Below are positions 14,563 through 63,413 of a stretch of DNA of 64,000 nt, piece after piece; position 1 is the stretch's first letter; each line of letters starts with the position of its first letter. The position numbers were made by a program, and so were the translations under genes. Below the pieces are notes generated by a model. It made no database searches. It was given only the letters and a program-made list of their open reading frames with translations, and was not told the origin of the DNA. This DNA comes from Escherichia phage DK-13, in the sequence record MT611523.1, one strand, 5' to 3'.

Positions 14563-14849
14563 TAGAACCTCATCTGAAAGCCGTGCGATTTAACATTGCC
14601 ACCATAGATGTCAGACGTATTAACTTCACGTGCAGCGCTCGGGTCGATATTGATATCATGGTTGAGCTTAGTGATTGCTAGGGTATCACGACCGTTAACA
14701 GTACGGAATTCTACCGGGCAAACTATATCCGCATAGTTTTTAATGGATTCTTTAGTTGGTTGCTTATCAGCAGGTACACCTGGACCAGCTTTAGAGAAAA
14801 CAACTTCACAGAAATTTTTACGTGTATCAAAGTAAGTAGTCATAAACAT
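14562..14849 (-). CDS. hypothetical protein
   Basis: Start moved to ATG after TTGAGGAAAATACT SD (MFMTTYFDTRK...); GNRA-loop hairpin GGGGCGAAAGCCCC just 5' of the SD. Confidence 0.5.
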   Translation of the reverse strand: MFMTTYFDTRKNFCEVVFSKAGPGVPADKQPTKESIKNYADIVCPVEFRTVNGRDTLAITKLNHDINIDPSAAREVNTSDIYGGNVKSHGFQMRF

Positions 14850-14947
14850 AGTATTTTCCTCAAGGGGCTTTCGCCCCATTTAAGATTAGATATCAAATTC
14901 ATTAAGAACTACATCAAAGATTGCTTCCAGGTGTTCAGTATGGAATC

Positions 14948-14977
14948 ATTATGCACTGGACAACCCCTGTTGTAAAC
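14948..14977 (-). promoter_or_regulatory. early promoter (GTTTACA, 17-nt spacer, CATAAT) directly downstream of terminator
   Basis: - strand GGGTTTACAACAGGGGTTGTCCAGTGCATAATGATTCCATACTGA; shares the 3' half CATAATGATTCCATACTGA with copies at 50092 and 53991. Confidence 0.5.
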
Positions 14978-14984
14978 CCTTTAT

Positions 14985-15016
14985 GGAAAATAAAAAAGGG
15001 ACTCCGAAGAGTCCCT
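14985..15016 (-). terminator. rho-independent terminator
   Basis: - strand GGGACTCTTCGGAGTCCC then TTTTTTATTTT, right after stop of the 15021..15182 ORF. Confidence 0.7.
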
Positions 15017-21258: not shown

Positions 21259-21294
21259 TGGGAGCATTATACTCTGCTCCCATGAGTTTGTACA
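21259..21294 (-). promoter_or_regulatory. early promoter with inverted repeat spanning -10
   Basis: - strand TGTACA-aactcatGGGAGCAgag-TATAAT-gCTCCC; arms GGGAGCA/TGCTCCC. Confidence 0.5.
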
Positions 21295-22850: not shown

Positions 22851-23987
22851 TTATTCAGGAAGGATTACTTCCGCTTGGTAGTCTAACGGAATGTAAAGTT
22901 TATGATTTTTAAGGAAAACTTTATTGATTTGAGCAATCGTTTGTTCAGTTTCCTGTGGGCGTTGATAGGTGTTCATTAATACGGAGAACAATCCCGGGTA
23001 AGGTTTGCACAACTCTTGACCTTTAATCGCAAACTCGCGACGGTCTTTTCCTGCCAATTGTTTCTGAGCATCAAGCAACAATCCAAGAGTGTTGGACAGA
23101 TAATCCAGATGCGTTACAGTAAAGGCATTAACTTTTTCGCGAGCATAAGTATCGCCAGTAAACATGGCAATAACATCATCCGCCCCGCCAGCAACAACAA
23201 CTTCAAACAGTCGCTCATTATTATTAATGGAGTCTTTAGTATGATGCAGAGCACAATACCATTCTGTTTTCATCTTGAACTTCTGACCACTTGCCAACTC
23301 GTAGACGAAGCCTTCAATCTCTTTCATACCACGGACATTCTCAATGCTCGCCGGGTCATATGCTTCAACCAGGAAAGGACGGAGCGCAGCATCTTTGAAC
23401 AGTTCCTGATAAGGAATATATTCACCAGTTTCATTATGGCGAACGTTCAGTAAAATCAGGTCACGTTCCTGGTAAGGCAAAACAATGCGGTTGGTTGGTG
23501 CAACATATTCCATATTGCATGTATAACCAGCTTCAGTGATTTCAGTTACGCGAGTCCTGAATGCACTGCGATGCTCTTGTTTAAACACCTGCAAGGATTC
23601 AGCAGCTTGGGAGCTTTTGATTGACCCTTTGGATTTAAAGGCGATATTAGTCTGGTCCATATAAGTAGAAACCAAGCTACCATCAGCTTTTGCAGTAACC
23701 AGGACAACCTCATCAAGGTTAAGGTCCATGGTCATTGGATTCTCACCCAGATTAAAGAATTTTTCCATAGGACGGGCGGCAATGCGAACTGGACCATTGT
23801 CATCCATTTCAAACATAATGCCACGACACTCCAGCGCATCATCAAGGAGCCAATCACTATAGGAAGCATAGTTATAGCTAAAGATGCGGAACTTAGTTTC
23901 AAATGGAGAAACAAAATCCGTATAGAAAAACTTACCTTTATCGGATTCGGCGCAAAGCTTCATTAAGTTATCATATAATTCAATCAT
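22851..23987 (-). CDS. rnlA: RNA ligase 1
   Basis: 378 aa; FRIFSYNYASYSDWLL.DALECRGIMFEMD...RPMEKFFNL.ENP matches remembered T4 Rnl1 (gene 63). Confidence 0.9.
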   Translation of the reverse strand: MIELYDNLMKLCAESDKGKFFYTDFVSPFETKFRIFSYNYASYSDWLLDDALECRGIMFEMDDNGPVRIAARPMEKFFNLGENPMTMDLNLDEVVLVTAKADGSLVSTYMDQTNIAFKSKGSIKSSQAAESLQVFKQEHRSAFRTRVTEITEAGYTCNMEYVAPTNRIVLPYQERDLILLNVRHNETGEYIPYQELFKDAALRPFLVEAYDPASIENVRGMKEIEGFVYELASGQKFKMKTEWYCALHHTKDSINNNERLFEVVVAGGADDVIAMFTGDTYAREKVNAFTVTHLDYLSNTLGLLLDAQKQLAGKDRREFAIKGQELCKPYPGLFSVLMNTYQRPQETEQTIAQINKVFLKNHKLYIPLDYQAEVILPE

Positions 23988-24400
23988 TTCTTCACCTTAT
24001 GTTGGTAATTCCACGGGGGATTAAAAAGCTTGATGAACATCGGCTCTTCCAGAGACATCGTTTCGACTGACATTGTGCCAAGTTCATTGGTCATTGACAG
24101 ATTGAAACATTGACGTGCATAGAATACCACCTTTTTACCTTCTTGTAAAGCTTCATGTATCATCCGGGATTTGTTTGAATCACTCGTCTGTTCGATTCGG
24201 TTAATTGCAGTCCGGTAATAGTTGATACGCTTCTTAAGGTTGTTCGTCTTACCAATATACACTAGTTCATCATCAACTGAAATAGCATAGATAACATTTT
24301 TCTTGTTTGCGAGAGTAAGGATAGGGATTTTACCATCGACTAACTCTAACTCCGCGTATTTTATAAAACTGTATTCATCAGCGATTTGTTTCATGGGCAA
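23984..24400 (-). CDS. denA: endonuclease II (GIY-YIG family)
   Basis: 138 aa; GIY-YIG-like VIYAIS...LVYIGKTNNLKKR; position between nrdB and rnlA. Confidence 0.75.
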   Translation of the reverse strand: MPMKQIADEYSFIKYAELELVDGKIPILTLANKKNVIYAISVDDELVYIGKTNNLKKRINYYRTAINRIEQTSDSNKSRMIHEALQEGKKVVFYARQCFNLSMTNELGTMSVETMSLEEPMFIKLFNPPWNYQHKVKK

Positions 24401-24420
24401 AAAGGGCCGAAGCCCTTTCC

Positions 24421-25599
24421 TTATAGATATTTACGGAAACTAGCAAGAACATTCTCATCGACGTCATTGTCAATCTGGGCTACCAGGTAAGCAGACAACT
24501 CAACTTCTTGTGGTGCAGATTGCACATTATCAGAGTTAAGATATTCACGAATCCATGGAATCGGGTGCTTAGTAGATTCTAACACGATTTCACAAGGGAG
24601 ACCGCATTGCTTCATACGAGAAACCGTCAGGTAATCGATGAACCGGTTAAGAATCTCGACGCTCAGCCCAGGGAGTCCACCATCTTTAAACAGATGCACG
24701 GCCCATTCTTTTTCCTGGCGATTAACTTCCATGAAAATGGCTGCGGCTTCTGCTTCACATTCGTGAGCGATTTTAACCCATTCGTCACCGTCAACACCAG
24801 TTTGCAGCTGACGAAGAATATATTGGGTCCCCTTAAGGTGGAGCTGCTCATCACGGGCGATGAACTTCATTATCTTCGCATTACCTTCCATGATTTCCAT
24901 GTTCTTATGGAAGTTAAAGGTGCATGCGAAAGATACATAAAAACGAATAGCTTCCAGGGCGTTAATAACATGCAGGCAGAGATAAAGAGACTTCATCAAT
25001 GCTCGTTTGGCGATAGCTTCTTGTTTGATAGCTCGTTCCAAACGTTCGTCCGCTTCGGGAGTTTCTTTGGCCAGTTCAACAAAAGCAATCTGGTTTTGCC
25101 ATTGACGAGTTTTATTCAGAACATCATCATAGTAATGACCAATGGATTCTGCGCGCTTCATGATTGCATCATCTAACAGGATTTCGTCGAATACCTTCGC
25201 CGGGTCCGTATAGAGATTTCGCATGATGTGCGTATAAGAACGAGAGTGAATTGTCTCGCTGAATGTCCAGGTCTGAATCCATGTATCAAGACTCGGGTCG
25301 GAAACTAATGCGGCTAATGCTGCAGCTGGAGCACGTCCCTGGATACTATCCAGAAGTGATTGGTATTTCAGGTTATTGGTAAAAATATTTTGTTGATGTT
25401 CAGGAAGCTTATTAAATTGGGCTCCATCCATCATCAGGTTTACTTCCTCAGGTCGCCAGAAGTACGAGAGTTGACGCTCTGTCAACTCTTCAAACTGTTT
25501 GTGTCGCTGGATATCATAACGGGCGATGCCCAATCCAGAACCGAAGAACATCGGCTCGGCTAAAACATCCACCGGAGTGGTATTAAAAACTGTACTCAT
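24421..25599 (-). CDS. nrdB: ribonucleotide reductase small (beta) subunit, uninterrupted
   Basis: Diiron RNR beta features; start moved to MSTVFNTTPVDVL (ATG at 25597-25599); no intron. Confidence 0.9.
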   Translation of the reverse strand: MSTVFNTTPVDVLAEPMFFGSGLGIARYDIQRHKQFEELTERQLSYFWRPEEVNLMMDGAQFNKLPEHQQNIFTNNLKYQSLLDSIQGRAPAAALAALVSDPSLDTWIQTWTFSETIHSRSYTHIMRNLYTDPAKVFDEILLDDAIMKRAESIGHYYDDVLNKTRQWQNQIAFVELAKETPEADERLERAIKQEAIAKRALMKSLYLCLHVINALEAIRFYVSFACTFNFHKNMEIMEGNAKIMKFIARDEQLHLKGTQYILRQLQTGVDGDEWVKIAHECEAEAAAIFMEVNRQEKEWAVHLFKDGGLPGLSVEILNRFIDYLTVSRMKQCGLPCEIVLESTKHPIPWIREYLNSDNVQSAPQEVELSAYLVAQIDNDVDENVLASFRKYL

Positions 25600-31502: not shown

Positions 31503-31541
31503 TTTATTCTCCAGTTTTGTTGTGTAACTCAATATGGGACC

Positions 31542-31570
31542 ATTATGTCATAGCCCCATTTGGTTGTACA
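31542..31570 (-). promoter_or_regulatory. early promoter (TGTACA, 17 nt, CATAAT)
   Basis: - strand AAAAAGTAGTGTACAACCAAATGGGGCTATGACATAATGGTCCCATATTGAG. Confidence 0.45.
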
Positions 31571-32225: not shown

Positions 32226-32260
32226 GGGAACATATTATCATGTTCCCGTTGGTTTGTATA
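32226..32260 (-). promoter_or_regulatory. early promoter with perfect palindrome GGGAACAT/ATGTTCCC around -10
   Basis: - strand TATACAAACCAACGGGAACATGATAATATGTTCCC. Confidence 0.45.
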
Positions 32261-32488: not shown

Positions 32489-32517
32489 TTTATTTTCCTC
32501 ATGTAGTTGATAGGTCT

Positions 32518-32547
32518 ATAGTATCTCAACCATAGACCGTTGTAAAC
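32518..32547 (-). promoter_or_regulatory. early promoter (GTTTACA, 17 nt, TACTAT) with inverted repeat GGTCTAT/ATAGACC
   Basis: - strand AGTTTACAACGGTCTATGGTTGAGATACTATAGACC. Confidence 0.45.
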
Positions 32548-32912: not shown

Positions 32913-32950
32913 TTTTATTTCCTCAGTTGTTATCAGTAGTTGATGGAATC

Positions 32951-32979
32951 ATTATGCCTTAGCTCAAGGGGATTGTACA
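32951..32979 (-). promoter_or_regulatory. early promoter (TGTACA, 17 nt, CATAAT) fused to gene 32 terminator
   Basis: - strand ...TTTTTATTTTAAAAAAGTAGTGTACAATCCCCTTGAGCTAAGGCATAATGATTCCATC. Confidence 0.5.
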
Positions 32980-32984
32980 CTACT

Positions 32985-33016
32985 TTTTTAAAATAAAAAA
33001 GGGACCCGAAGGTCCC
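32985..33016 (-). terminator. rho-independent terminator after gene 32
   Basis: - strand GGGGACCTTCGGGTCCC then TTTTTATTTT. Confidence 0.7.
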
Positions 33017-33022
33017 CTTATA

Positions 33023-40826: not shown

Positions 40827-41957
40827 ATGGAAAAATTTATGGCAGAGTTTGGACAAGGATACGTCCAAACGCCAGTTATATCAGAAAATAATGCCGTTAA
40901 ATTTAAAATGAGTATAGCAGGGAGCTGTACTCTTTCCACGGTGAAATCGTATATCAAATTTCAGGATGAACAAATCGGACCAACTACTTTTGGCAATGGT
41001 TTGACTCTATTAGAAATTGATACAACTACGAATAAAATTGTTAACACGAAAAACTATTCATTGACCAGCACACATGATGTAATCAGTCAGGCATTAATCA
41101 CCTTTGTGGAATCTGTTCCAGCTGGAAGATTGATTGCTTTTATTTCTTCTGGGAAACTAAATGCCTCGCAAACATTAATTGACTGGCTTCGTAAATGTGG
41201 CTCAAGAGCATTCCCCGAGAAATGGTTGATTGATAAAGTTGATACATCGTACTCGGCTTTTTACATAACCGGCCGGAACGTAATTGTTTCGGAGCATGTT
41301 AAGTATAATGACGGAATGTTAGTTGAGGATGTTTCAACTCCGCTTGAAGTCATTTATGATACCTTTAGTGATATAGGAGCAACAGGCTATCCTGTGCGCA
41401 TAACGGAAGACGAGAGCACGTATTCATCAACAGGTGATGGAACATCAACCGCGATTAGAAGGTTCCCCACAGAGGACCTGGTGACTCCTATGAGCACCTA
41501 TAACCTTTTACCTTTGGATGTGCTTTACTTGAAGTTTCAGATGTCATTTGACGCTGCACTGAAAGCCGCCGGGACTGTAAGGACTTCGGTTCGATTCTTT
41601 AAAAGCCCCAGCACTTCTCCAATATCAAATACAAACATCGATATTGCAGCGAACGTTCCAGCTGGTGCATGGGCAAGTTTCGAAAGATATGTCGAGATTC
41701 CAGCGGAAGCCGATGGCTTTACGGTAGTAACATCAAGGACTGTAGCTGTGGGAACTGGGTCAATACGTAATATTGTTATTGGTGAGATAACCAGAGGTGA
41801 CTCGGCATTCAAACCAGCTGAATTTGGTGTCAACGGCATAAGGATGTCATATGCAAACGATACAACAAATACAGGCAATACAATTGTAACATTACCAGAT
41901 GCGCAAGCTCCGAGAGCCGGCAAGATATATGCGGCCGAACTACGAGAAAAACAATAG
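40827..41957 (+). CDS. 35: long tail fibre hinge (knee) protein gp35
   Basis: 376 aa, synteny. Confidence 0.8.
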   Translation: MEKFMAEFGQGYVQTPVISENNAVKFKMSIAGSCTLSTVKSYIKFQDEQIGPTTFGNGLTLLEIDTTTNKIVNTKNYSLTSTHDVISQALITFVESVPAGRLIAFISSGKLNASQTLIDWLRKCGSRAFPEKWLIDKVDTSYSAFYITGRNVIVSEHVKYNDGMLVEDVSTPLEVIYDTFSDIGATGYPVRITEDESTYSSTGDGTSTAIRRFPTEDLVTPMSTYNLLPLDVLYLKFQMSFDAALKAAGTVRTSVRFFKSPSTSPISNTNIDIAANVPAGAWASFERYVEIPAEADGFTVVTSRTVAVGTGSIRNIVIGEITRGDSAFKPAEFGVNGIRMSYANDTTNTGNTIVTLPDAQAPRAGKIYAAELREKQ

Positions 41958-41978
41958 GACTCTTCGGAGTCCTTTTTT
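41957..41978 (+). terminator. rho-independent terminator after gene 35
   Basis: GGACTCTTCGGAGTCC then TTTTTT, followed by late promoter. Confidence 0.6.
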
Positions 41979-41981
41979 CGT

Positions 41982-41989
41982 TATAAATA
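41982..41989 (+). promoter_or_regulatory. late promoter (TATAAATA) for genes 36-38
   Basis: TATAAATA about 35 nt upstream of gene 36 ATG. Confidence 0.6.
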
Positions 41990-42680: not shown

Positions 42681-45600
42681 ATGGCTACTTTAAAACAAAT
42701 ACAATTTAAAAGAAGTAAGGTTGCCGGCGTTCGTCCGGCGCCAACAGTTCTTGCTGAAGGTGAACTGGCTATCAACCTGAAAGACCGCTTACTTTTTACT
42801 AAAGATGACACCGGCGCCATCATCGACCTTGGCTTTGCTAAAGGTGGTAATATTGACGGTAACGTTATTCATAAAGGAAATTACAATCAAACCGGCGCCT
42901 ATACTATAGCCGGAGATATTTCACAAACGTCTGGACATTTTACTACTACTGGTAATATAACAGCAAATGGTGATATTACTGCAAAAGCCCGTTTAATGAC
43001 AGATAACGGTGAAGTTCTTGTACGAGGTACAGGAACCACTCATGTTCGATTCCAGGATTTGGCTGATGCTCGCGAAAGAGGTATAATTTATTCTCAAAAC
43101 CGTACTGGGGATACCAAGCAAATCTTGAACGTTCGTGTCCAGGATTACACTAATTCAACATCTAATATTTTTGCATTCAACGGCGACGGTTTATTTTATG
43201 CTCCATCTATTTCCGGTGGAACATCGGTAAAATCTCCGGTAATTTATACTAATACCGTTGATACCGGTAATAAATCAGCTCTTGATTATGATATATCTTC
43301 ATTAGCAAATAATAATCCTGCAAGTTCAAGCGCAACAGCTATTAACTATCTTAGAATAAGTAGACACGCTGTCGATGGAATTAGGTATCGTGAACTTAAT
43401 AATGTAAATGGTATTTCATGGCATTCTATTTCTACAGCCGGAACAGCTAAGTATCTTTGGTCATTTAATGCAGATGGAGATGTCAAAACATCAAATTCTC
43501 TTTCCGTTGGCCTACCTGGGGATAGCTCAGGATACTCAACATTAGGTCCGTCTGCTATCGCACTTGGCGACAATAACACAGGTTTGAAATGGAGACAAGA
43601 CGGCCAGTTCCATATAGTTAATAATGGAGCTTATACTTTACTTACAACTCCGACTGAAGTTACAAGCCTTAAACAGTTAGTTGCGGGTTATTCAACCAAC
43701 GGTTCTGATTTAATTCTCCCTACAACCCAAAACTATCCATTAGTTATTGTTAATACTACTAATGATAAAAACGGCTTCGGTGACGGTCAAACTCTTTTAG
43801 GATATCACCAAAGCGGCAAATATCACCATTATTTTCGTGGCAAAGGTGTAACAAACGTTAACACCGATGGTGGGTTGTTGGTTACTCCTGGTAACGTTGA
43901 AGTCCGTGGTGGTTCGGTTAATATTGATGGTCTCAGTAATGCTTCGACAGTGCTTTTTAAAGGAAATACTACAGGTTCTAGTTCAGTTGATAATATAGAG
44001 CTCAAAGTTTGGGGTGACACTTTTAATACGGTAGATGGTTCTCGTAAAAACGTAATGGAAACATCTGATGCTACCGGCTGGATGCATTATATTCAACGAA
44101 CTACAGCAGGTAAAGTCGAATCCTATTTAAATGGTACCATGAATGTAATTGAAGGATTGACTGTCAATCAAGATACATCCTTAAAACGCAATCTGTATGT
44201 TTCTAATGAAATTAAAGTTCGCGCTGCTAGTGGTCTTCGTATTTGGAACGATAAGTACGGTGTTATTTTTCGAAATTCGGAAGACCAGCTGCATATTATC
44301 CCGACCAATGTTAATGCCGGCGAAAGTGGCGGATTAGGCCCATTACGCCCATTAAGTATTACGTTAGACACTGGTCAAGTTAAAATCCCTAATTTAGCGG
44401 CTGACCAAGTTTCTTTTATTGCTAACAGCGTATTAGAATTCCCTGCTGGTAATGGTGCATCTTATGCCAACCAGAATACGACTAAAGCTCCGTTGTATCA
44501 AACACTTGGTGCAGCAACCCAAGCATTCTATCCAATTACCAAGCAGAAAAATACAGTTTCTAATGTAACTATTACTCAAGGTATGGACCGCGCTACGAGC
44601 GAATACCGAATTGTTGCTCAAGGTGATTTGCTTGGTAATGGTGATGTTACAGGATTAAAATACTGGCGCTTTACCAAAGAAGGTAACTTCATAGCTCAGA
44701 ACCGCTTATATGCCGGTACAGCTTATATGAATACCGATGGTAATATTGCAGGTTCTATTTGGAAAAAGTATAGCGGTGCTACTAACCTTGATTCTGCGGT
44801 GAATACTCGTGTAGGTAAAGGCGGCGATACAATGACAGGCCGTTTAACTCTTAATGCAAACTCGGATGCTATTGTTATTAACAGTGCTGCAACCGAATCT
44901 GGTTATATGAAAGGACAAAAAGCTGGTATTGATAACTGGTATGTAGGTAACGGCGGTGCCGATAATGCTGTATCAATTTATAGTTTTCAAACTAATTCAG
45001 GTGTTAATATTAATGCAGGTGGTGATATTGCTTTAAACCCACAAGGTTCAGCCACTTTTAATTTTAATAGGGACAGACTTTTTATTAATGGCTCTGTCTG
45101 GGCGGCTCACCAAGCTGGCGATTGGGGAACCCAATGGAAGCAAGAAGCTCCGGTATTTGTAGATTTTGGTAATGTTGGTAATGATAGTTATTATCCGATT
45201 ATCAAAGGAAAATCTGGTATTACTAATGAAGGATATGTATCGGGTGTTGATTTCGGTATGCGTCGTATTACTAATACATGGGCCCAAGGTATTATTCGTG
45301 TAGGTAACCAGGAAAACGGTTCCGACCCACAAGCTATATATGAATTCCACCACAATGGAGTTATGTATGTTCCTAACATGGTTAAAACTGGAGCAAGATT
45401 ATCAGCTGGTGGTGGTGACCCTGTATGGACCGGCCCGTGTCTTGTTATTGGTGATAATGATACAGGATTAGTTCATGGTGGTGACGGCCGAATCAATATG
45501 GTTGCCAATGGTATGCATATTGCATCTTGGTCTAGCGCTTATCATATCCATGAAGGTCTTTGGGATACCAATGGTGCTTTGTGGACTGAGCAAGGAAGAG

Positions 45601-46010
45601 CTATTATGTCTTATGGTCATCTTGTTCAGGCAAACGACAGCTATTCTACATATGTTCGAGATGTTTATGTCCGTTCTGATATTCGTGTTAAAAAAGACCT
45701 TGTTAAATTTGAAAATGCTTCTCAGAAGCTTTCTAAAATCAACGGTTACACTTATATGCAGAAACGTGGCCTGGATGAAGAAGGTAATCAGAAATGGGAA
45801 CCTAACGCTGGTTTAATTGCTCAAGAAGTTCAATCTATTTTACCTGAATTGGTTGAAGGCGACCCTGATGGTGAAGCTTTACTTCGTTTAAACTATAACG
45901 GTGTAATTGGTTTAAATACAGCTGCAATCAATGAGCATACTGCAGAAATTGCAGAACTTAAGTCAGAGATTGAAGAACTTAAAGCATTAATTAAATCATT
46001 GTTAAAATAA
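42681..46010 (+). CDS. 37: long tail fibre distal subunit gp37 with C-terminal intramolecular chaperone (S74-like) domain
   Basis: 1109 aa; C-terminal about 110 aa begins at the S-D-x-R-x-K-type motif [10 protein letters not shown] and ends in a coiled coil. Confidence 0.9.
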
Positions 46011-46016
46011 TAAGAG

Positions 46017-46030
46017 GGGCTTCGGCCCCT
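46017..46030 (+). promoter_or_regulatory. UUCG-loop hairpin immediately 5' of the gene 38 Shine-Dalgarno
   Basis: GGGGCTTCGGCCCC followed by TTGGAGGTTTATATG. Confidence 0.45.
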
Positions 46031-46839
46031 TGGAGGTTTATATGGCAGTAGTAGGACCATGGGTTGGAGGGTCTGCAGTAGCTAATACAGGACAAAACTG
46101 GATGGGTGGCGCGGCCCAACGATTAAGAATGGGTGCTCCGTTTTGGATGAGCAATATGATAGGTCGGTCTGTTGAAGTAATTCATACTTTAGGTGGAGAC
46201 CATAACTTTAATGGGCAATGGTTTAGAGACCGTTGTTTTGAAGCCGGCGCTGCGCCTATTGTGTTTAATCTTACAGATACATTAGTATCTTATACCCCTG
46301 ATGTTCCATTGTTCTTTATGTATGCGGATACTCCAAACGAATACGTTGTTTTGAATATTCATGGTGGGGTTCATATGTGGGGACGTGGTGGTCACGGCGG
46401 TTGGACCCACTCAGGTGGAGACGGTAACGGCCAACGGGGTGGTGATTGTATAGTCAACCATATAGGTCATAGACTACGTATTTGGAACTATGGGGTTATC
46501 TGCGGCGGTGGCGGAGGCGGAGGCGGTATTGCTTATCGACCTCACTCAGGTGCTAACTGGCAAGATATCGGCGGTGGCGGCGGACGTCCATTTGGTCCAG
46601 GTGGTGGTGGCGGGTATTCCGGCGGCGGCGCTTCTTATGAAAGCCCTGGCGGTGGATACGATTATGGTAACGCCCACTCAGGTCGTGGCGGGGATGCCGG
46701 CGGTGCAGGCCAGAACGCATGGTCTGATGGTGGTAAAGTTCTAAAAGTCGGAGCCGGTGGCGGTTCTGGAGCTGCTGTTGCCGGTTATGCTCCTGCATGG
46801 GGCGCGACAGGTACGATTTACGGTCCTTGGCTTAGTTAA
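46030..46839 (+). CDS. 38: T2-type tail fibre adhesin gp38 with glycine-rich motifs
   Basis: 269 aa; poly-Gly tracts [48 protein letters not shown]. Confidence 0.85.
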
Positions 46840-50042: not shown

Positions 50043-50091
50043 TTTATTCTCCAAAGTTTTTGTGATTCATTGTGTAACTCAGTATGGAATC

Positions 50092-50120
50092 ATTATGCAG
50101 CGGGTCAAGGGGATTGTACA
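50092..50120 (-). promoter_or_regulatory. early promoter (TGTACA, 17 nt, CATAAT) fused to terminator
   Basis: - strand AAAAAAAGTAGTGTACAATCCCCTTGACCCGCTGCATAATGATTCCATACTGAGTTAC. Confidence 0.5.
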
Positions 50121-50130
50121 CTACTTTTTT

Positions 50131-50158
50131 TAAAATAAAAAAGGACCCCGAAGGGTCC
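50131..50158 (-). terminator. rho-independent terminator downstream of gene 52 and the 32-aa ORF
   Basis: - strand GGACCCTTCGGGGTCC then TTTTTTATTTT. Confidence 0.7.
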
Positions 50159-50256
50159 TAGTCTTTATCTATCTTATTACCAATAAACATACCAACAATC
50201 ACACCTGCGATTGCCGCGAAAATACAAAGCAATGCAAACTCAACTCCAAAACTCAT
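50158..50256 (-). CDS. 32-aa hydrophobic membrane peptide, translationally coupled to gene 52 (ATGA)
   Basis: MSFGVEFALLCIFAAIAGVIVGMFIGNKIDKD; SD TGGAGG inside gene 52 3' end; not in ORF track. Confidence 0.35.
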   Translation of the reverse strand: MSFGVEFALLCIFAAIAGVIVGMFIGNKIDKD

Positions 50257-51781: not shown

Positions 51782-51942
51782 TTATTAATAGCCGATTCAA
51801 GAAATTTAACTAAGGCATCCAGTACAAACCATGTGCAAATAAATCCTGCAAAAAGAGTACTTGGGACCCATACACCTGTAGCAAAAAGAGTCACAGCAAC
51901 GATAACAGCTACGAGCCAGATAAAAGTAAAAACTGATTGCAT
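51778..51942 (-). CDS. 54-aa membrane protein (possible Ac-like)
   Basis: Start moved to ATG after GAGGAAAAC; MQSVFTFIWLVAVIVAVTLFATGVWVPSTLFAGFICTWFVLDAL... Confidence 0.45.
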   Translation of the reverse strand: MQSVFTFIWLVAVIVAVTLFATGVWVPSTLFAGFICTWFVLDALVKFLESAINK

Positions 51943-52031
51943 GTTTTCCTCACAGGCGTCCAAAGACGCCAGTTAATTTCAGATTATGACGATGCCATTG
52001 CATCACATGTTCGTTATGGAAATTACTCATA

Positions 52032-52481
52032 TTAATAGCTCTGTAAAATGAATTTAAAGTTATCAGCAAGCATGCGATTCATTTCTGAAAGGGTCTGGCA
52101 ATCAGAACTATGTGAGCGAGTGAACGCCATCGCAATTTGACCTTTACCATAACCAGTTGTCAGAGGTTTCATTTTAGAAACTGGGACAAACAGGACTTCA
52201 TAGATAACCCCATTGTTCGCCATTGTGCGAGACAGTTGCGAACGCTGTTTGCGGATGTGACTTAATACAGTGTCAAACCCTTGTTGTGAACGTTGGTTAC
52301 CAACATAAAAACGTGCGGCAACAATACGTGATTCGCCTTCACCTTTGACCACGAAATAAAAACCTGGTTGGGTGACAGCTTCTTTAGTTGGACGCCCTGC
52401 AACATAATTGCCATTATGGATGTGAGCAACAGTGGTAGCGCCAGCATTCAGTACGTCACGACGGGTCATGTAAGTAGTCAT
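52032..52481 (-). CDS. hypothetical 149-aa protein, candidate Ndd (nucleoid disruption) by position and size
   Basis: Between gene 52 and rIIB, size close to T4 Ndd; sequence only vaguely familiar. Confidence 0.4.
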
Positions 52482-52520: not shown

Positions 52521-52555
52521 GGGGTCATTATACTCTGACCCCAAGAGTTTGTACA
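52521..52555 (-). promoter_or_regulatory. early promoter with inverted repeat spanning -10
   Basis: - strand TGTACA-aactcttGGGGTCAgag-TATAAT-gACCCC; arms GGGGTCA/TGACCCC. Confidence 0.5.
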
Positions 52556-52932: not shown

Positions 52933-52967
52933 GGGAACATTATACTCTGCTCCCAAGAGTTTGTACA
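52933..52967 (-). promoter_or_regulatory. early promoter with inverted repeat spanning -10
   Basis: - strand TGTACA-aactcttGGGAGCAgag-TATAAT-gTTCCC; arms GGGAGCA/TGTTCCC (one G-T wobble position). Confidence 0.5.
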
Positions 52968-54030: not shown

Positions 54031-54306
54031 TTAATTTTGCATTTGTTCTTTAACTTCTTTATATGCGCCAACTGCATTCACGACCCCAGTAAAATCTGCA
54101 GTCCCACGATAGAGATAGAAAGCAATTTCAGTCAGGTGGTAGACTTCAAATTCTGAAAGATAAACGATAACGTCATAATATGCAACTTGACCCTGGACTT
54201 CGTTGAATACCACATCAAAAATTTCATGGGTTGGAAAATTGATGTTGTTGTTTTTGAGTGCTTGGATAAGAATTTGTTTGATGTTGTGAGTAGTAACGTG
54301 TTCCAT
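54031..54306 (-). CDS. hypothetical protein
   Basis: Start moved to ATG after hairpin-embedded SD (MEHVTTHNIKQ...); 91 aa. Confidence 0.5.
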   Translation of the reverse strand: MEHVTTHNIKQILIQALKNNNINFPTHEIFDVVFNEVQGQVAYYDVIVYLSEFEVYHLTEIAFYLYRGTADFTGVVNAVGAYKEVKEQMQN

Positions 54307-54312
54307 GATAAT

Positions 54313-54338
54313 GTCCTCATTTGTTGGTATGAGGACAT
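54313..54338 (-). promoter_or_regulatory. hairpin sequestering the Shine-Dalgarno of the 54031..54306 gene
   Basis: - strand TGTCCTCA-taccaacaaa-TGAGGACA then TTATCATG; SD GAGGA lies in the 3' arm. Confidence 0.45.
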
Positions 54339-54367
54339 TATTACACAGTTGGTTCAGCTTGTAAACC
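54338..54367 (-). promoter_or_regulatory. early promoter (GTTTACA) inside the 3' end of the upstream gene
   Basis: - strand GGTTTACAAGCTGAACCAACTGTGTAATAATG. Confidence 0.4.
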
Positions 54368-55275: not shown

Positions 55276-55473
55276 TTATTCACCAAAATAAGAGATACGA
55301 GTTGCCAGAATATGAGCATATGCGCCCATCGCATCTAACTGGGCAATCAAAAGACCTTGTTGACGAGCATCGAGAGTTTCAAAAACACCACCCTTAATAA
55401 ATTCTTCAAGAGCATTGATTTTCAAAACCAGCTGGTCATGTTCTTCAACTACACGTGCTTGGAAACCTAACAT
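55276..55473 (-). CDS. hypothetical protein
   Basis: 65-aa ORF; GGGGCTTCGGCCCC hairpin immediately 5' of its SD. Confidence 0.5.
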   Translation of the reverse strand: MLGFQARVVEEHDQLVLKINALEEFIKGGVFETLDARQQGLLIAQLDAMGAYAHILATRISYFGE

Positions 55474-55506
55474 AAAGCCTCATTAGGGGCCGAAGCCCCG
55501 ATTAAT

Positions 55507-56481
55507 TTAGAATTGTTCAGTTACATCGTCAAGGACTAAGTAACCACAGACCCGCATTTTGGAATCATTATAATCCACCGGGATACTTACAACATCACGC
55601 GGGTGAACTTTACAGGATACGATGCGTCCATCACCATGACCAAAACCACTTCCGATATAACCTTTAGAGCAAACATGCAGCCCGGTTGAACAGGTCTGTT
55701 CGTCATTATCGTTCACACGAGAGCGCGGCATTTTAACATATTGGCCAGGGCTGTTGTCGAATGTATTTGAGTGACAATCTTTGTAAGTTGCACGAACCAT
55801 TTTCCATGTGATGAAATGACCGTCTTCGGTGATTTCAATATCGTTCGCAACCAGGAAGTCAAACAAACGCTGTACAGCTTTTTCACTCGGGTTCTCAAGG
55901 AGATTCTCAAGGAACGGCAGATAGAATTCAAAGTCTTCGCCATTTTGCATTGAATCAATGATACGAGTAACCAGGCCGGAGCGCAGTTCAATTCCCTGAT
56001 AGAACAAACTACCACCTTCAATACGCACATCACCTTTCACATATTTTTGTACTGCAGCTTTGATTGAGATAAACTCGATAGCATCATCAAAACGAGATTC
56101 TTTGAGTGCCTGAATAATATCATCAAAGTGTTTATGGTCTTTTGTTGCGTTCCAGACTGTACGACCTTCAGTGATGGAAACGAATTTGCTTGATGCGTTC
56201 CATACGATTTCTGGACGGCTACCGCCGATTGTATCTTCAACAACCGGGACTTCAACCGTTACTGTCACCGGAGCATTAATCGCCACCCCGACAGCGGCTT
56301 TCAATGATGCAGAAATGGTTTTAGATAATTTTGATTCTTTATCATTTTTCAAAACACGGCGAATGGTGTCAACCGATACACCGAAATTATCTGCTAGTTC
56401 CTGTTGGGTATAATTACCAGTTTTATAAAGAGAAACTACCTGGTTTTGGTCAAATTTGGATAAAGCTTTAATATTAAACAT
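55507..56481 (-). CDS. rIIB: rIIB lysis-inhibition/membrane-integrity protein
   Basis: 324 aa directly downstream of rIIA; sizes and order as in T4. Confidence 0.8.
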   Translation of the reverse strand: MFNIKALSKFDQNQVVSLYKTGNYTQQELADNFGVSVDTIRRVLKNDKESKLSKTISASLKAAVGVAINAPVTVTVEVPVVEDTIGGSRPEIVWNASSKFVSITEGRTVWNATKDHKHFDDIIQALKESRFDDAIEFISIKAAVQKYVKGDVRIEGGSLFYQGIELRSGLVTRIIDSMQNGEDFEFYLPFLENLLENPSEKAVQRLFDFLVANDIEITEDGHFITWKMVRATYKDCHSNTFDNSPGQYVKMPRSRVNDNDEQTCSTGLHVCSKGYIGSGFGHGDGRIVSCKVHPRDVVSIPVDYNDSKMRVCGYLVLDDVTEQF

Positions 56482-56482
56482 A

Positions 56483-58717
56483 TTATTCCTTATTGGCCGC
56501 TTCCACGGCCTTCATGATTTGAGCAACGTTCTGTACTTGTTCAGTTGACATGGCGTTACGGTTATATAAAAAGTGTGAAACAATCGGGTGATTCTTTTCA
56601 AATTCAAAAACCATTTTATCGCTTGTTACCGAAGCGTTTTTGGTCAGGTCGTCATAAATCTTATTACAAAGGACCAGAGTTTCCTGCATGGTCTTATCAA
56701 CTGTTCCACTGTTATATGCATTATAAGCAAAGAACTTATTGAACTGCATTAGTTCAGCATAGTCAGTGTTCACATCTTTCTGAACATCTTTCGCATAAAA
56801 ATACTTGAACATAAAATTCAGTTCTGCATATTCAGACAGGATAGGAATATAATAACGCGAACGGCTTGAAGCGGCAATGTACTGGTCCGCATCAACTGAA
56901 TCAATCAATTCCACATAACCATTGACTGCAGCTTCAATCAGACAATCACACTGCGCCAGCTTGGTAACCTTTTTCTGAAGCTGTGGACGAATAACACAGA
57001 ATTCATTGATTTCCAACAGGTTTGCCAGTTTACACAATGTCTGGGTCCCGAAGGTCGTGGTGCCATATTCTTGATTCAACGGGGAAATGCTGCTGCGGTT
57101 AATGAATACAGCATAACCATCGATTTCCTCTGCATCAGCAGCACACGTAAATTCTTCAACAGCCTGCCATCGACCATTGGTTTTAGTCCAACGAATCACC
57201 GATGGAGTCTTTGACTTAACACGCTCTTTCGGGTCCGCAACCGGAATCCAGTCTTTTACAAGGGCGGTCAGTTCAGACGTACGATAGATATTAACTGTAT
57301 CGCCTTTAAATCGTTCTTGAAGTTGAACCATCAGACGTGTTTGAATTTCGCTGGTTGGGTCAACGAACAATAGACTACTACCCTGCACAGTCGGAACTTT
57401 ACCAGATGCTTTGAGCTTTTTGGCTTTCGCGCTGGTGTCATACAGCATTGAACTGATACCACGAATCATCGCAATTCGCCCTTTAGCATCGTCAATAACA
57501 ATATTCAAGGTATCATTATGAATACCAAACATGCTTGTCAGGCTTGCAGTATTCGTGTTCGAGCTTGAGTTACGCAGACGTTTCAGACGGGTGGTGCTAT
57601 AGATATCATAGACAACCCCGGCATTAATAAGGTCTTTGTCCAGCTCGAACATTTCGTACATCTGGTTAAAAGTCAATTGTGATTTTGTAAATTTCGTTTC
57701 AGCATTACGAGCTTTCAGAAAATTACGAGCTTCATAACTCAGACTCTGCAATTCGCGATACGTATGGCGGATACATTCTGATTCCTGCCATTTCTTACAA
57801 TCATCTTCCATGACCTTCTTATCAAGCGATTCAATACGTTCAACGATATTTGCGACCGTACGTTTGTCCAGTGATAATGCTTCGCGAGAAGGTGCAATAT
57901 CCAACGAACCCATCGGGAACTTAATAAAGACAACATCATTTTTGGCAGTCATCCAGGTTTTCTTTGTATAACCATCACCAATCGGATAAACAATACCGCC
58001 GTAAATTGCATAAAGTCCATAACGTTCTGGGCTGCTATAATCAATACGCGCTGGAGCATAATAATCATCAAATTCTGGGAAGTAATTAATTTCGCCTACG
58101 CCTTGCACTTCAGCCAGTCCAGCAAATGGACGCATGATATACGCAATCTCGTAGCGGAACTTACCAAAATCATTACTATCAACCGGGACAACAACTTCAA
58201 TCCCTGTGCGGTCACCAGGTTTCATTGGTTCGCTAAAGGTTGGCTTAATCTGTGGACCATCGCCGTCCATATAAGCGACATATCCATTAACTTGACCATC
58301 ATGATATGAAATCAGGCTAAACGTCTCGGTATAACTGAACGGAGATTTAGAACCCAGACCAAAGCCACCAATAAAATCATTGGATTCAGCCTTGGATGAT
58401 GCAAAGAAACTGTTATACAGACCTGGAGTGTTTTCATCACCACGAATCTGGAAATCACTCATACCTGGACCAAAGTCACGACACACAAAACGTGGGTCCA
58501 GTTCACCAGGAGCTTGAACAATGAATTTATCCTGACAGCCATTGAGCATATGAGCATCAATCATATTGGTAATCAACTCACGAACAACTGCACGCACCTT
58601 ATTTGTGTAAAGGTCGCTGGTCAGAATCTTAAACACCTTTGGAGATGCCTGGATTGTGAATGCTGATGCCTTGGCACCATTACCAAGGATTGTTTCCTTT
58701 TCAGTTTCTAAAATCAT
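56483..58717 (-). CDS. rIIA: rIIA protein (GHKL-type ATPase-like N-terminus)
   Basis: 744 aa; N-terminal histidine-kinase-like ATPase signature (ELITNMIDA..., GGFGLGSKS); position between 39-side genes and rIIB. Confidence 0.85.
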   Translation of the reverse strand: MILETEKETILGNGAKASAFTIQASPKVFKILTSDLYTNKVRAVVRELITNMIDAHMLNGCQDKFIVQAPGELDPRFVCRDFGPGMSDFQIRGDENTPGLYNSFFASSKAESNDFIGGFGLGSKSPFSYTETFSLISYHDGQVNGYVAYMDGDGPQIKPTFSEPMKPGDRTGIEVVVPVDSNDFGKFRYEIAYIMRPFAGLAEVQGVGEINYFPEFDDYYAPARIDYSSPERYGLYAIYGGIVYPIGDGYTKKTWMTAKNDVVFIKFPMGSLDIAPSREALSLDKRTVANIVERIESLDKKVMEDDCKKWQESECIRHTYRELQSLSYEARNFLKARNAETKFTKSQLTFNQMYEMFELDKDLINAGVVYDIYSTTRLKRLRNSSSNTNTASLTSMFGIHNDTLNIVIDDAKGRIAMIRGISSMLYDTSAKAKKLKASGKVPTVQGSSLLFVDPTSEIQTRLMVQLQERFKGDTVNIYRTSELTALVKDWIPVADPKERVKSKTPSVIRWTKTNGRWQAVEEFTCAADAEEIDGYAVFINRSSISPLNQEYGTTTFGTQTLCKLANLLEINEFCVIRPQLQKKVTKLAQCDCLIEAAVNGYVELIDSVDADQYIAASSRSRYYIPILSEYAELNFMFKYFYAKDVQKDVNTDYAELMQFNKFFAYNAYNSGTVDKTMQETLVLCNKIYDDLTKNASVTSDKMVFEFEKNHPIVSHFLYNRNAMSTEQVQNVAQIMKAVEAANKE

Positions 58718-59269: not shown

Positions 59270-59422
59270 CTACTCAACTTTATAGACTTGCCCATACGCG
59301 GTATAGTATTCACCATCCCAGGTCTCGCACATAATGGTGACAAAGGATGCAAACAGGGGTTTAGTATCGGCCCACAGATAACCGTATTCGCCATTTGACA
59401 ACGTAACCCACCACTTTTTCAT
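59270..59422 (-). CDS. small hypothetical protein (50 aa), not in ORF track
   Basis: ATG after TAGGAGAAGTCC; MKKWWVTLSNGEYGYLWADTKPLFASF...; preceded by palindrome GGGAGAATATTCTCCC just after gene 39 stop. Confidence 0.35.
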   Translation of the reverse strand: MKKWWVTLSNGEYGYLWADTKPLFASFVTIMCETWDGEYYTAYGQVYKVE

Positions 59423-59464
59423 GGACTTCTCCTATAAGACGGGAGAATATTCTCCCACATCTAT

Positions 59465-61297
59465 TTATAGCGTCGCATTCATCCAGTCTTTACGCTGCTG
59501 GGAATCTTTACCGAATAGCATTTCGAACAGTTCTTTCCAGTTGTCGGGCAATTGAACAACTTCGAATACCGGTTCGAGCAATACACGTTTATACTCGGCA
59601 TCTTCCAGAGAACCAAGCCCCTTGATATATCGGATGGTGTGCTTCGGAAGTTTATCCTTAGCTTCTTCATAGTCAGGGAGAGAATAGAACCATTCTTGTT
59701 TATCTTTGAGCTGTGCAATAATAACAGGAGTTTTCACAAAGCGAATTCGTCCTTCATGGAACAACTCTGGCCAGTTACTGAAAAACGCCAATAATGATGG
59801 ATAGATACTACCGACACCATCCACATCCGCATCTGTCATGATAGCAATGTTTCGGTAATTCATATTCTCGGCCGGTTGTCCAATCGTTAATCCAGTAATT
59901 GCACACACATCAAAGGCTTCAGCGTTCTTCATAACTTCAACAGCTTTCAGACCCCATGTGTTTTTAAACTTACCACGTAATGGATAAGCACCTTGCAATT
60001 CACGGTCACGAACCTTGATAAATGGACCGGTTGCAGAATCACCTTCAGTCAGGAACAGAGTTGTTTCCAACTTATCATTGCCCCATTCGTTGGCTTTGAT
60101 ATGCTTTTGTACCTTGGCCTTTGAAGCTTTCTTATTTGCTTTAGTCTCTGCTGCTTTCTCTGCAGCCAATTTACGGGCTAATGCAGCTTCAACAATCGGC
60201 ATAATCAGCGGTTCATTTTTCAGAATAGCTTGCGCGATTTTCTTGGCATCAATCTTAATGTGATTTCGAATTTCGCCAGCCGGAGAAGTCAATCGCTCCT
60301 TGGTCTGGGAATCAAATCGCATGTTGCTCATATCGCGGATGAACATAAGCATGGTGAGACATTCTTTAACTCGTGCCTTGGTCACCTCGATGCCTTTATA
60401 TTTGCGCTTAATCGCAGGCTGAAGGTATTCACAGATATCATCCATAACACATTCAACGTGGTGTCCGCCATTCTTTGTATGAATATTGTTGACATAAGTC
60501 AGCTGACGGAAACCGTCCGGGCTGGTCGTAAAGGCCATCGATACTGTATCAGTTTCCTGGATAACAACTTCAGTTCCGAATTGCTTGGAGAACTTCTTGA
60601 AATTACCATCAACCTTTTTACCATTAAAGGTGAACTGAATATCCGGATAAACAACCGCGAGAGTCTGTAAACGGTCTAATGTAATATCCAGATAAATCTG
60701 GGACAGACTATTTTCTTCAAAGTGACTAAAATCTGGAACAAATATAACAGTTGTACCTTTGCCCTTAGATTTCTTGGTGGACCAACCTTTGTTTTCCATA
60801 CCGTTGGAGCAGTTAACAGTAATTTCATTTGTCCCATCAGCGGTAATCCCGGTGAACAATACAGAGAAAATATTGGTCAGAGAAGACCCGACACCATTCA
60901 TCCCGCCAGTTTTACGTTCAGCATCATCACCGAAGTTGCCACCGGCTTTTGGAATAGTCCATGCTGCAACAGGGCCAGGGATTTGTTCACCGTTTTGGTC
61001 TGTAACCATTGCTTGTGGAATACCACGGCCATTATCAGAAACCGAAATCTGATTATCTTTAATTTGGACATCAATTTTATTGGCAAATTTAAAACTGGTG
61101 CGAATTGCTTCATCAACAGAGTTATCGATAATTTCATCAATCAGTTTTACAATACCAGGAACATAGCTTACGGACTTATATTCACCAAACAAGAATCGCT
61201 CATGCGCTTCATTTGAACTGGAACCAATATACATCCCGGAACGTTTTTTGATATGCTCGACGTCCGAGAGTACTTTAATTTCATTATTAATCATCAT
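59465..61297 (-). CDS. 39: DNA topoisomerase II large subunit gp39 (GyrB-like ATPase), unsplit
   Basis: 610 aa; GHKL ATPase motifs (...DNGRGIP..., GGMNGVGSS) plus TOPRIM-type C-terminal region; single continuous ORF, no gene-60 split. Confidence 0.9.
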   Translation of the reverse strand: MMINNEIKVLSDVEHIKKRSGMYIGSSSNEAHERFLFGEYKSVSYVPGIVKLIDEIIDNSVDEAIRTSFKFANKIDVQIKDNQISVSDNGRGIPQAMVTDQNGEQIPGPVAAWTIPKAGGNFGDDAERKTGGMNGVGSSLTNIFSVLFTGITADGTNEITVNCSNGMENKGWSTKKSKGKGTTVIFVPDFSHFEENSLSQIYLDITLDRLQTLAVVYPDIQFTFNGKKVDGNFKKFSKQFGTEVVIQETDTVSMAFTTSPDGFRQLTYVNNIHTKNGGHHVECVMDDICEYLQPAIKRKYKGIEVTKARVKECLTMLMFIRDMSNMRFDSQTKERLTSPAGEIRNHIKIDAKKIAQAILKNEPLIMPIVEAALARKLAAEKAAETKANKKASKAKVQKHIKANEWGNDKLETTLFLTEGDSATGPFIKVRDRELQGAYPLRGKFKNTWGLKAVEVMKNAEAFDVCAITGLTIGQPAENMNYRNIAIMTDADVDGVGSIYPSLLAFFSNWPELFHEGRIRFVKTPVIIAQLKDKQEWFYSLPDYEEAKDKLPKHTIRYIKGLGSLEDAEYKRVLLEPVFEVVQLPDNWKELFEMLFGKDSQQRKDWMNATL

Positions 61298-62805: not shown

Positions 62806-62850
62806 AATATTCTCCTCATTGATAGGGCAAAACCCTATCATTTTTATAAT

Positions 62851-63342: not shown

Positions 63343-63378
63343 AATTTTCTCTCTTGGTTAATAAGTTTATTCTCCAGT

Positions 63379-63413
63379 GGGGCCATTATACTCCGGCCCC
63401 AAGAGTTTGTACA
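63379..63413 (-). promoter_or_regulatory. early promoter with inverted repeat spanning -10
   Basis: - strand TGTACA-aactcttGGGGCCGgag-TATAAT-gGCCCC. Confidence 0.5.

Follow-up and report, generated by a model that had tools for sequence, protein, structure and literature searches.

Tuerk et al. (PNAS, 1988) reportedly described the extra-stable C(UUCG)G hairpins of T4 intercistronic mRNA, and the functions that have been proposed for this family are folding nucleation, stability and termination. In bacterial operons, the REP elements in malEFG and the hairpins of the puf operon are intercistronic stabilizer hairpins, and intrinsic termination by E. coli RNA polymerase has the U-tract as its defining requirement. 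The UUCG tetraloop was discovered in T4 mRNA (PMC4371310), and the intergenic stem-loops of T4 often carry UUCG (PMC1702504). The same hairpin design is found in the intrinsic terminators of T4-type phages, including the PeSL stem-loops (PMC2839356, PMC4122927). In T4 gene 38, the SD and the AUG are 22 nt apart, and a structure between them brings this distance down to 5 nt, with improved initiation (Uzan and Miller 2010, PMC3014915); this split ribosome-binding-site hairpin, which T4 gene 25 also has (Nivinskas, Malys; reviewed in PMC3014915), lies at one of the junctions analyzed below. The hairpins reported here are of a kind already known since 1988, the intercistronic C(UUCG)G hairpins of T4, and the finding is in this respect an ordinary one.

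We analyzed a 64,000-nucleotide stretch of Escherichia phage DK-13 (MT611523.1), hereafter called the window. The region around the hairpins showed 96% identity to Escherichia phages TH41 and VR20, the latter being a Gaprivervirus of the Tevenvirinae (T4 group), and the gene order of the window was that of T4. On sequence grounds, the window belongs to a Gaprivervirus related to T4 and similar to VR20. Three U-less hairpins were located at the junctions rIIB/denB.1, 37/38 and 30.7/30.6. The names rIIB and DenB.1 were transferred from the annotation of the 96%-identical VR20, in which the ORF is given as 'similar to T4 DenB.1', and the names gp30.7 and gp30.6 were taken from the VR20 and T4 annotation. 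The gp37-like fibre was identified with Pfam, and the gene 38 product is a T2-type gp38 adhesin (Pfam PF05268, E=1e-62). The gp37-like fibre gene (42681-46010, + strand) encodes a C-terminal 'chaperone of endosialidase' domain (Peptidase_S74, residues 999-1058), and the gp38 adhesin gene comes next. Comparative loci were collected from IMG/VR with DenB.1, rIIB, gp38 and gp30.6 as queries, and the T4 reference sequence was included. A search of the whole 64-kb window with the Rfam covariance models gave 0 matches at the gathering score, and no tRNA, intron or other curated RNA family was detected in this way. For the three sites, transcript-end or half-life data for T4 were not found in the literature.

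The first-pass annotation had noticed the same GC stem with a UUCG loop after rIIB and between genes 37 and 38, and the two copies proved to be an exact 14-mer, GGGGCTTCGGCCCC, at 55486-55499 (- strand) and 46016-46029 (+ strand). This 14-mer occurs exactly twice in the window; when up to 2 mismatches were allowed, there were 5 matches versus 0.07 expected from shuffles, and 0 of 100 shuffles reached 5. At the 37/38 site the hairpin itself stood as annotated, and its position had to be moved by one base from the 46017-46030 given originally. The related hairpin that had been placed near an SD at about 14864 was recovered as GGGGCGAAAGCCCC at 14864-14877 (- strand). The three elements form GGGGC(UUCG)GCCCC twice and GGGGC(GAAA)GCCCC once, with nearest-neighbour estimates of dG between -9.6 and -11.2 kcal/mol, and all of them were present in both the minimum-free-energy and the centroid folds of their 101-nt contexts. 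At each of the three sites, both flanking genes have the stable loop on their coding strand. The annotated sequence of events after the stem, an SD and an ATG at a short distance and no U-run, was also borne out: each stem is followed by 2-4 nt, then by GAGG or GGAGG and then by ATG, and the sense-strand tails UAAUGAGGC, UUGGAGGUU and UUGAGGAAA are free of a U-run. The three hairpins belong, as members without a U-run, to the extra-stable hairpins of T-even intercistronic mRNAs, which have a GC stem and a C(UUCG)G or GNRA loop; the first-pass annotation had not identified them with these classical CUUCGG hairpins. They share the loop, the closing pair, the GC stem and the intercistronic sense-strand position with the C(UUCG)G hairpins of T4, which has counterparts at all three junctions, whereas one window hairpin differs from that family in its GAAA (GNRA) loop.

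At the rIIB/denB.1 junction (- strand), the rIIB stop UAA (55509-55507) and the AU-rich spacer AUUAAUC occupy 55500-55509, and the hairpin GGGGC(UUCG)GCCCC (55486-55499; dG -9.6; T-score 1.26) stands 7 nt past the stop without a U-run. The initiation region of the DenB.1 homolog follows at 55471-55485 and comprises UAAU, GAGG (55481-55478), CUUU and AUG (55473-55471), the sense order being UAA-AUUAAUC-hairpin-UAAU-GAGG-CUUU-AUG; the downstream ORF of 65 aa extends over 55276-55473. A UUCG hairpin right after the rIIB stop was present in nearly all sampled lineages, with variable stems: GGGGC/GCCCC in the window and its close relatives, GGGGAC/GUCCCC in L015-L017, AAGGGCC/GGCCCUU in L018-L020 and L022, and GGC/GCC in T4. 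The T4 hairpin is placed directly before the SD and, like that of the window, has no U-run (UAAGGCUUCGGCCCUUAACUAAGGAAAAUUAUG). In L015-L020, the gene after rIIB is not denB.1 and the hairpin there has a U-run; the tails of the homologs at this junction in other Tevenvirinae read UUUUUCUUU or UUUAUUUUU. This retention of the hairpin next to the upstream gene is no less compatible with a function at the 3' end or as a boundary than with a 5' role, and the U-runs on the positional homologs in other lineages suggest that termination may be the ancestral role.

At the 37/38 junction (+ strand), the hairpin core GGGGC(UUCG)GCCCC (46016-46029) can be extended to GAGGGGC...GCCCCUU (46014-46031; dG -11.2; T-score 1.90), and the extended hairpin begins directly behind the UAAUAA stop of gene 37. 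The gene 38 initiation region at 46032-46044 consists of GGAGG (46032-46036), UUUAU and AUG (46042-46044), and the sense order is UAAUAA-GA-hairpin-UU-GGAGG-UUUAU-AUG. The hairpin was found 0-4 nt before the SD in 17 of 17 T2-type gene 38 loci, the SD being GGAG or GGAGG in all but one of them, and it was kept across three unrelated gp37 C-termini. The stems at this junction were AGGGGC/GCCCCU, AGGGCC/GGCCCU, AUGGGGC/GCCCCAU, GAUGGGGC/GCCCCAUC and AAGGGGGC/GCCCCCUU, and the loops among relatives were UUCG, UUAG, CUCG, UUUG, AUU and AAC. In the MAFFT alignment, 94.7% of the cells were paired and one pair was swapped from G-C to C-G in three sequences; 0 of 500 shuffles matched the observed pairing or covariation score, and slid registers scored worse. 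Such compensatory stem changes, with the structure kept, point to selection on RNA.

Almost the same 37/38 stem-loop is present in T4 (GAGGGGCUUCGGCCCUUC, compared with GAGGGGCUUCGGCCCCUU in the window), where the junction reads UAAGGAG-AGGGGCUUCGGCCCUUCU-AAAU-AUG. In T4, the SD (GGAG) is located 5' of the hairpin; in the window, by contrast, GGAGG is located 3' of the hairpin at a normal spacing of 5 nt, and gene 38 encodes the T2-type adhesin, which is unrelated to the T4 product. The bridging mechanism of T4 therefore cannot apply in the window. All three window sites have the SD 3' of the stem and 4-8 nt between SD and AUG, an arrangement that differs from the split ribosome-binding site of T4. 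The hairpin is the constant of the 37/38 junction, and its bridging role is specific to T4.

At the 30.7/30.6 junction (- strand), the hairpin GGGGC(GAAA)GCCCC with its GNRA-type loop (14864-14877; dG -10.0; T-score 1.73) is found directly 5' of the SD of the gp30.6 homolog. The initiation region (14847-14863) contains UU, GAGG (14861-14858), AAAAUACU and AUG (14849-14847), which gives the sense order hairpin-UU-GAGG-AAAAUACU-AUG. The MAFFT alignment of this junction violated the structure, and the hairpins were tabulated directly instead. Among relatives, the stems were GGGGC(GAAA), GGAGGC(UUCG)GCCUCC, GGGC(UUCG), AGGGGC(UUCG) and UGAGGGGC(UUUG)GCCCCUUA, each 2-5 nt before UGAGGAAAA. The T4 junction reads GAGGGGC(UUCA)GCCCCUU-ACUGAGGAAAA and is likewise U-less and directly before the SD, so that the hairpin-then-SD arrangement occurs in T4 at two of the three junctions (rIIB/denB.1 and 30.7/30.6). 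As judged from the compared loci, it is the structure and not the sequence that is conserved at the three junctions.

Upstream of the window's 30.6 homolog, at 14948-15016 (- strand), a U-run terminator AGGGACUC(UUCG)GAGUCCCU (14997-15016) is followed by the early-promoter-like motif TTTACA-17-CATAAT (14976-14948), which places the 14864 hairpin ~70 nt into a 5' UTR. Upon comparison of window positions 14880-14996 with VR20 (L176), VR7 and T4, we found that 30.8 was gone and that 30.7 was gone except for its last ~50 nt; ~780 bp were missing there, and the terminator-promoter cassette after 30.9 was fused to the 30.7 remnant. In one of the comparative loci, L044, the 30.6 hairpin was kept although a terminator-promoter cassette had taken the place of the upstream gene, the junction falling at the 5' edge of the stem. 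This persistence of the hairpin with 30.6 favours a role for the downstream gene.

A scan for perfect stems with 4-nt loops and an energy-based census placed the three hairpins in a family with 12 intergenic members in the window, all with tetraloops (11 C(UUCG)G and 1 GAAA). In all 12, the stable loop is found on the strand that is sense for the flanking genes, which argues for an RNA function over a DNA palindrome. When the U-tails were measured with a d'Aubenton-type T-tail score, nine hairpins (8566, 11041, 14997, 24401, 32998, 41956, 50142, 59246 and 61345) scored 3.7-5.2, and the three U-less hairpins scored 1.26-1.90. A late, middle or early promoter-like motif was present before the next gene at 7 of 8 co-directional U-run hairpins versus 0 of 3 U-less hairpins: the late motif TATAAATA after 11041 and 41956, a motif of the MotA-box type after 61345, and the early type T(T/G)TACA-17-(C/T)A(T/A)(A/G)AT after 14997, 32998, 50142 and 59246. 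As an example, the terminator-class sibling at 41956-41989 (+ strand) comprises AGGACUC(UUCG)GAGUCCU and UUUUU, then TATAAATA (41982-41989) before gene 36. The nine U-run hairpins are, by these predicted features, terminators.

The first-pass annotation had held the three U-less hairpins not to be terminators, and this view is supported from several sides. They have the GC-rich hairpin of an intrinsic terminator but lack the U-rich tract 3' of the stem, with T-scores of 1.3-1.9 compared with 3.7-5.2 for the U-run class, and none of the three was called by a consensus terminator scan of the sense strand. The PeSL order, a stem-loop and then an early promoter (-35, N17, -10), was seen at other hairpins of the window and at none of the three sites; the absence of both the U-run and the downstream promoter distinguishes them from the intrinsic and PeSL terminators, of which the window holds nine siblings. 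The gap between stem and AUG is 11-14 nt at the U-less hairpins, so a promoter cannot fit, and expression of the downstream genes requires that all three be read through. The nearest exact late-promoter motif upstream of gene 38 is that at 41982-41989, ahead of gene 36, and no exact match to this motif was found on the + strand from there to 46845, where one precedes gene t. Transcription of gene 38 must therefore begin at the gene 36 promoter and pass through the hairpin. In T4, moreover, the corresponding 37/38 hairpin lies inside the translated gene 38 mRNA (PMC3014915).

A fourth U-less candidate at 51955-51970, GGCGUC(UUUG)GACGCC followed by UGAGGAAAA, was dropped because it is part of the coding sequence at the 3' end of a 29-aa ORF (51942-52032, - strand). 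The last codons of this ORF form the hairpin, and its UGA stop overlaps the next SD. We take the ORF to resemble T4 Stp, and the T4 annotation has stp at the corresponding place.

We also observed other hairpins and cassettes in the window, all on the - strand. Inverted repeats around a TATAAT-like -10 were found at 21259-21282, 31534-31559, 32226-32247, 32513-32538, 52521-52542, 52933-52954 and 63378-63401, for example GGGGTCA-GAGTATAA-TGACCCC, and a -35-like element, G(T/G)TACAA, stands before each of them. These repeats resemble PeSL cassettes of early promoter and stem-loop, and their hairpin could form only in read-through RNA from upstream. At 14948-15016, 32930-33019 and 50060-50159, a U-run UUCG terminator precedes a promoter cassette that is almost the same each time, ...GT(A/T)(G/T)T(G/T)TACAA...N...GCATAATGATTCCAT(A/C), and the three constitute a repeated PeSL-like terminator-promoter module. 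At 24395-24423, UAAGG, AAAGGGC(UUCG)GCCCUUU and UUGCCC precede the AUG of a GIY-YIG (denA-like) ORF (23984-24394); the UAAGG overlaps the stop of an nrdB-like 392-aa ORF, and no SD intervenes between the stem and the AUG. The arrangement may represent a split site like those of T4 genes 38 and 25, with the order SD-hairpin-AUG, although the tail of the hairpin is also terminator-like (T-score 3.73).

Further hairpins were found close to start codons on the same strand. At 54308-54341, a 13-bp hairpin, AUAAUGUCCUCAU-ACCAACAA-AUGAGGACAUUAU, ends 1 nt before the AUG of ORF 54031-54306, with the SD (GAGGA) in its 3' arm paired to UCCUC; it looks like the SD-sequestering structures of T4 e, soc, 49 and I-TevI. 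At 59441-59469, TATAAATA (59469-59462) is followed after 5 nt by GGGAGA(AUAU)UCUCCC, AGGAG and an AUG at 59421, and a late transcript would begin roughly at the 59441-59456 hairpin. GGCCGU(GGAA)GCGGCC at 56495-56510, in the last rIIA codons and directly 5' of the rIIB SD (AAGGA; AUG at 56481), is a further case of a hairpin and then an SD, but within coding sequence. At 62820-62840, a U-less hairpin with a different stem and loop, UGAUAGGGU(UUU)GCCCUAUCA, stands 1 nt before GAGGAG and AUG.

A scan of IMG/VR for the exact 14-mer found it in at least 120 contigs, and 125 occurrences with enough flank were classified. Among the matches listed, 34 of the 125 had an SD-like motif and a start codon within ~25 nt, a strong T-run being absent in 28 of these 34, and another 28 of the 125 had only a strong T-run after the 14-mer. 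With 34 of the 125 listed occurrences showing SD and start, the stop-hairpin-SD-AUG order is a common phage arrangement. The recurrence of the 14-mer itself is probably a convergence on the shortest maximally stable hairpin.

We propose that the U-less hairpins are read-through RNA boundary elements, namely decay barriers that leave the adjacent ribosome-binding site free, and we give this reading about an even chance of being correct. The hairpins would act in RNA and not in DNA. Since a U-run is absent, the host RNA polymerase would read through, and the hairpins would stay in the mRNAs rIIB-denB.1, 36-37-38 and (30.7)-30.6. There, the hairpin could block 3'-to-5' exonucleases, and the upstream cistron would outlast an endonucleolytic attack that strikes the next ribosome-binding site or cistron. 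As the hairpin is predicted to pair only with itself, the SD and AUG region that starts 2-4 nt later would be left unpaired. In T4 mRNA decay, RNase II, RNase R and PNPase enter at the new 3' ends that cuts by RegB and RNase E/G create (PMC3014915). A function as decay barrier and insulator is suggested by analogy with intercistronic hairpins such as the REP elements and the CUUCGG hairpins. The window hairpins resemble the REP and puf hairpins in their stability, in their position between cistrons of a common transcript and in the absence of a terminator tail, but they are much shorter (14-18 nt), single copies and phage-encoded, and exonuclease protection would be carried over to them by likeness.

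In an ensemble calculation, opening the initiation region cost 5-7 kcal/mol when the hairpin was present; deletion of the hairpin raised this cost by 0.1-2 kcal/mol, and shuffling raised it at 3 of 4 sites; these differences are small, and the modelled effect would be weakly compatible with insulation. Several observations speak against a decay barrier. The 14864 hairpin lies in a 5' UTR, with no upstream cistron to protect on the transcripts of that promoter, and L044 keeps the 30.6 hairpin after replacement of the upstream gene. Moreover, the rIIB positional homologs elsewhere have U-runs, and the computed insulation is small.

The hairpin might instead be part of the downstream gene's initiation region, as in T4 genes 38 and 25, where it would set the access of the 30S subunit or of a terminating ribosome to the SD, for example by platform docking or by a stop-SD approach for re-initiation. 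The T4 37/38 hairpin is an experimentally supported initiation element that shortens the spacing from 22 to 5 nt (PMC3014915), the distance between stem and SD is 0-5 nt in every relative at 37/38 and 30.7/30.6, and in L044 the hairpin remains with 30.6, the junction being at the 5' edge of the stem. We nevertheless regard this explanation as unlikely: with the SD 3' of the hairpin at an optimal spacing of 4-8 nt, bridging is unneeded, in silico deletion shifts the opening cost by just 0.1-2 kcal/mol, and the hairpin after rIIB persists with a different downstream gene. Short distances between stem and SD are, in addition, expected anyway in gaps of 26-33 nt. A 5'-protective hairpin of the ompA type must lie within a few nt of the RNA 5' end, and the 5' stabilizer role that the first-pass annotation suggested, alongside that of a processing boundary, consequently requires that transcripts start, or are cleaved, immediately before the stem. 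If the AU-rich spacer were cut, or if transcription began next to the stem on its 5' side, the hairpin would then block 5'-end-dependent RNase E/G. Immediately before the rIIB/denB.1 stem, the AU-rich single-stranded AAAUUAAUC includes AAUUA, which fits RAUUW, the RNase E motif that Ehretsmann reportedly defined in 1992 at the T4 gene 32 site. RNase E processes T4 gene 32 mRNA at -71 (PMC3014915). However, RAUUW is short and common in AT-rich sequence, and it was rejected as a shared feature, being beside the stem at one site only and absent beside the 14864 stem. A sigma-70-like TTGACG-17-TAAATT (55532-55504) would start transcription at the first Gs of the rIIB/denB.1 stem, but it was rejected as a promoter, given that such matches were at chance level (2 found versus 0.9 expected) and that the start from the same candidate at the matching T4 place would fall inside the loop. 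Although the hairpin at 59441-59456, 5 nt after TATAAATA, provides an example in this genome of a stem near a predicted transcript 5' end, we consider a 5' stabilizer role at the three junctions quite unlikely.

If the hairpins terminated weakly or conditionally, or caused pausing, and in this way set the balance between upstream and downstream expression, this would explain why the stems are the same as those of bona fide terminators in this genome and why the rIIB-junction homologs in other Tevenvirinae end in UUUUUCUUU or UUUAUUUUU. The U-tract is required for intrinsic termination, however, the T-scores are just 1.3-1.9, and the downstream genes have no promoter of their own. Both UUCG copies were called terminator-like on the antisense strand because of their T-rich tails, but these antisense candidates were rejected, as the A-rich stop-codon spacers explain the T-richness. 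A weak-terminator role thus seems very unlikely. The hairpins could also be DNA-level linkers or relics with no present RNA function, either degraded PeSL halves or microhomology linkers for module exchange. PeSL cassettes shuffle modules in T4-type phages, and degraded copies with only the stem-loop have been described (PMC4122927); GAGGGGCTTCGGCCC is common to T4 and the window at 37/38 though both flanking genes differ, the L044 junction is located at the stem edge, and at least 120 viral contigs contain the exact 14-mer. Against this, the stable loop is always on the sense strand, compensatory stem substitutions keep the structure, and two of the three junctions lie outside hyperplastic regions, between conserved genes. 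Convergence on the shortest maximally stable hairpin explains the ubiquity of the 14-mer equally well, and we consider the linker or relic explanation highly improbable.

The decay-barrier reading can be extended to a cistron-uncoupling unit, in which a U-less hairpin with an SD 0-5 nt on spares the upstream cistron and doubles as a module-swap breakpoint; we regard this extension as rather improbable. In such a unit, RegB, acting on SDs that contain GGA, or RNase E/G, acting in the A-rich spacer, would cut the downstream ribosome-binding site. The upstream RNA would then end in the stem, its 3' overhang would not be long enough for RNase II, RNase R or PNPase to engage, and the upstream cistron would outlive the programmed inactivation of its neighbour. 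The same hairpins would be preferred module breakpoints of T-even phages, as in the exchange of T4-type and T2-type gene 38.

Current understanding of these hairpins is not overturned by the present results. What they reveal is a clean split of one family into two classes within one genome, namely hairpins with a U-run and a promoter and hairpins with no U-run and an immediate SD. For annotation, a U-run with a downstream promoter marks the end of a transcription unit, and a hairpin with neither marks read-through inside an operon, a distinction that terminator predictors and operon calls should apply. In the T-even group, the 37/38 junction, with its SD-hairpin-AUG order at T4 gene 38 and its hairpin-SD-AUG order at T2-type gene 38, is a natural pair for hairpin effects beyond the bridging of the SD.
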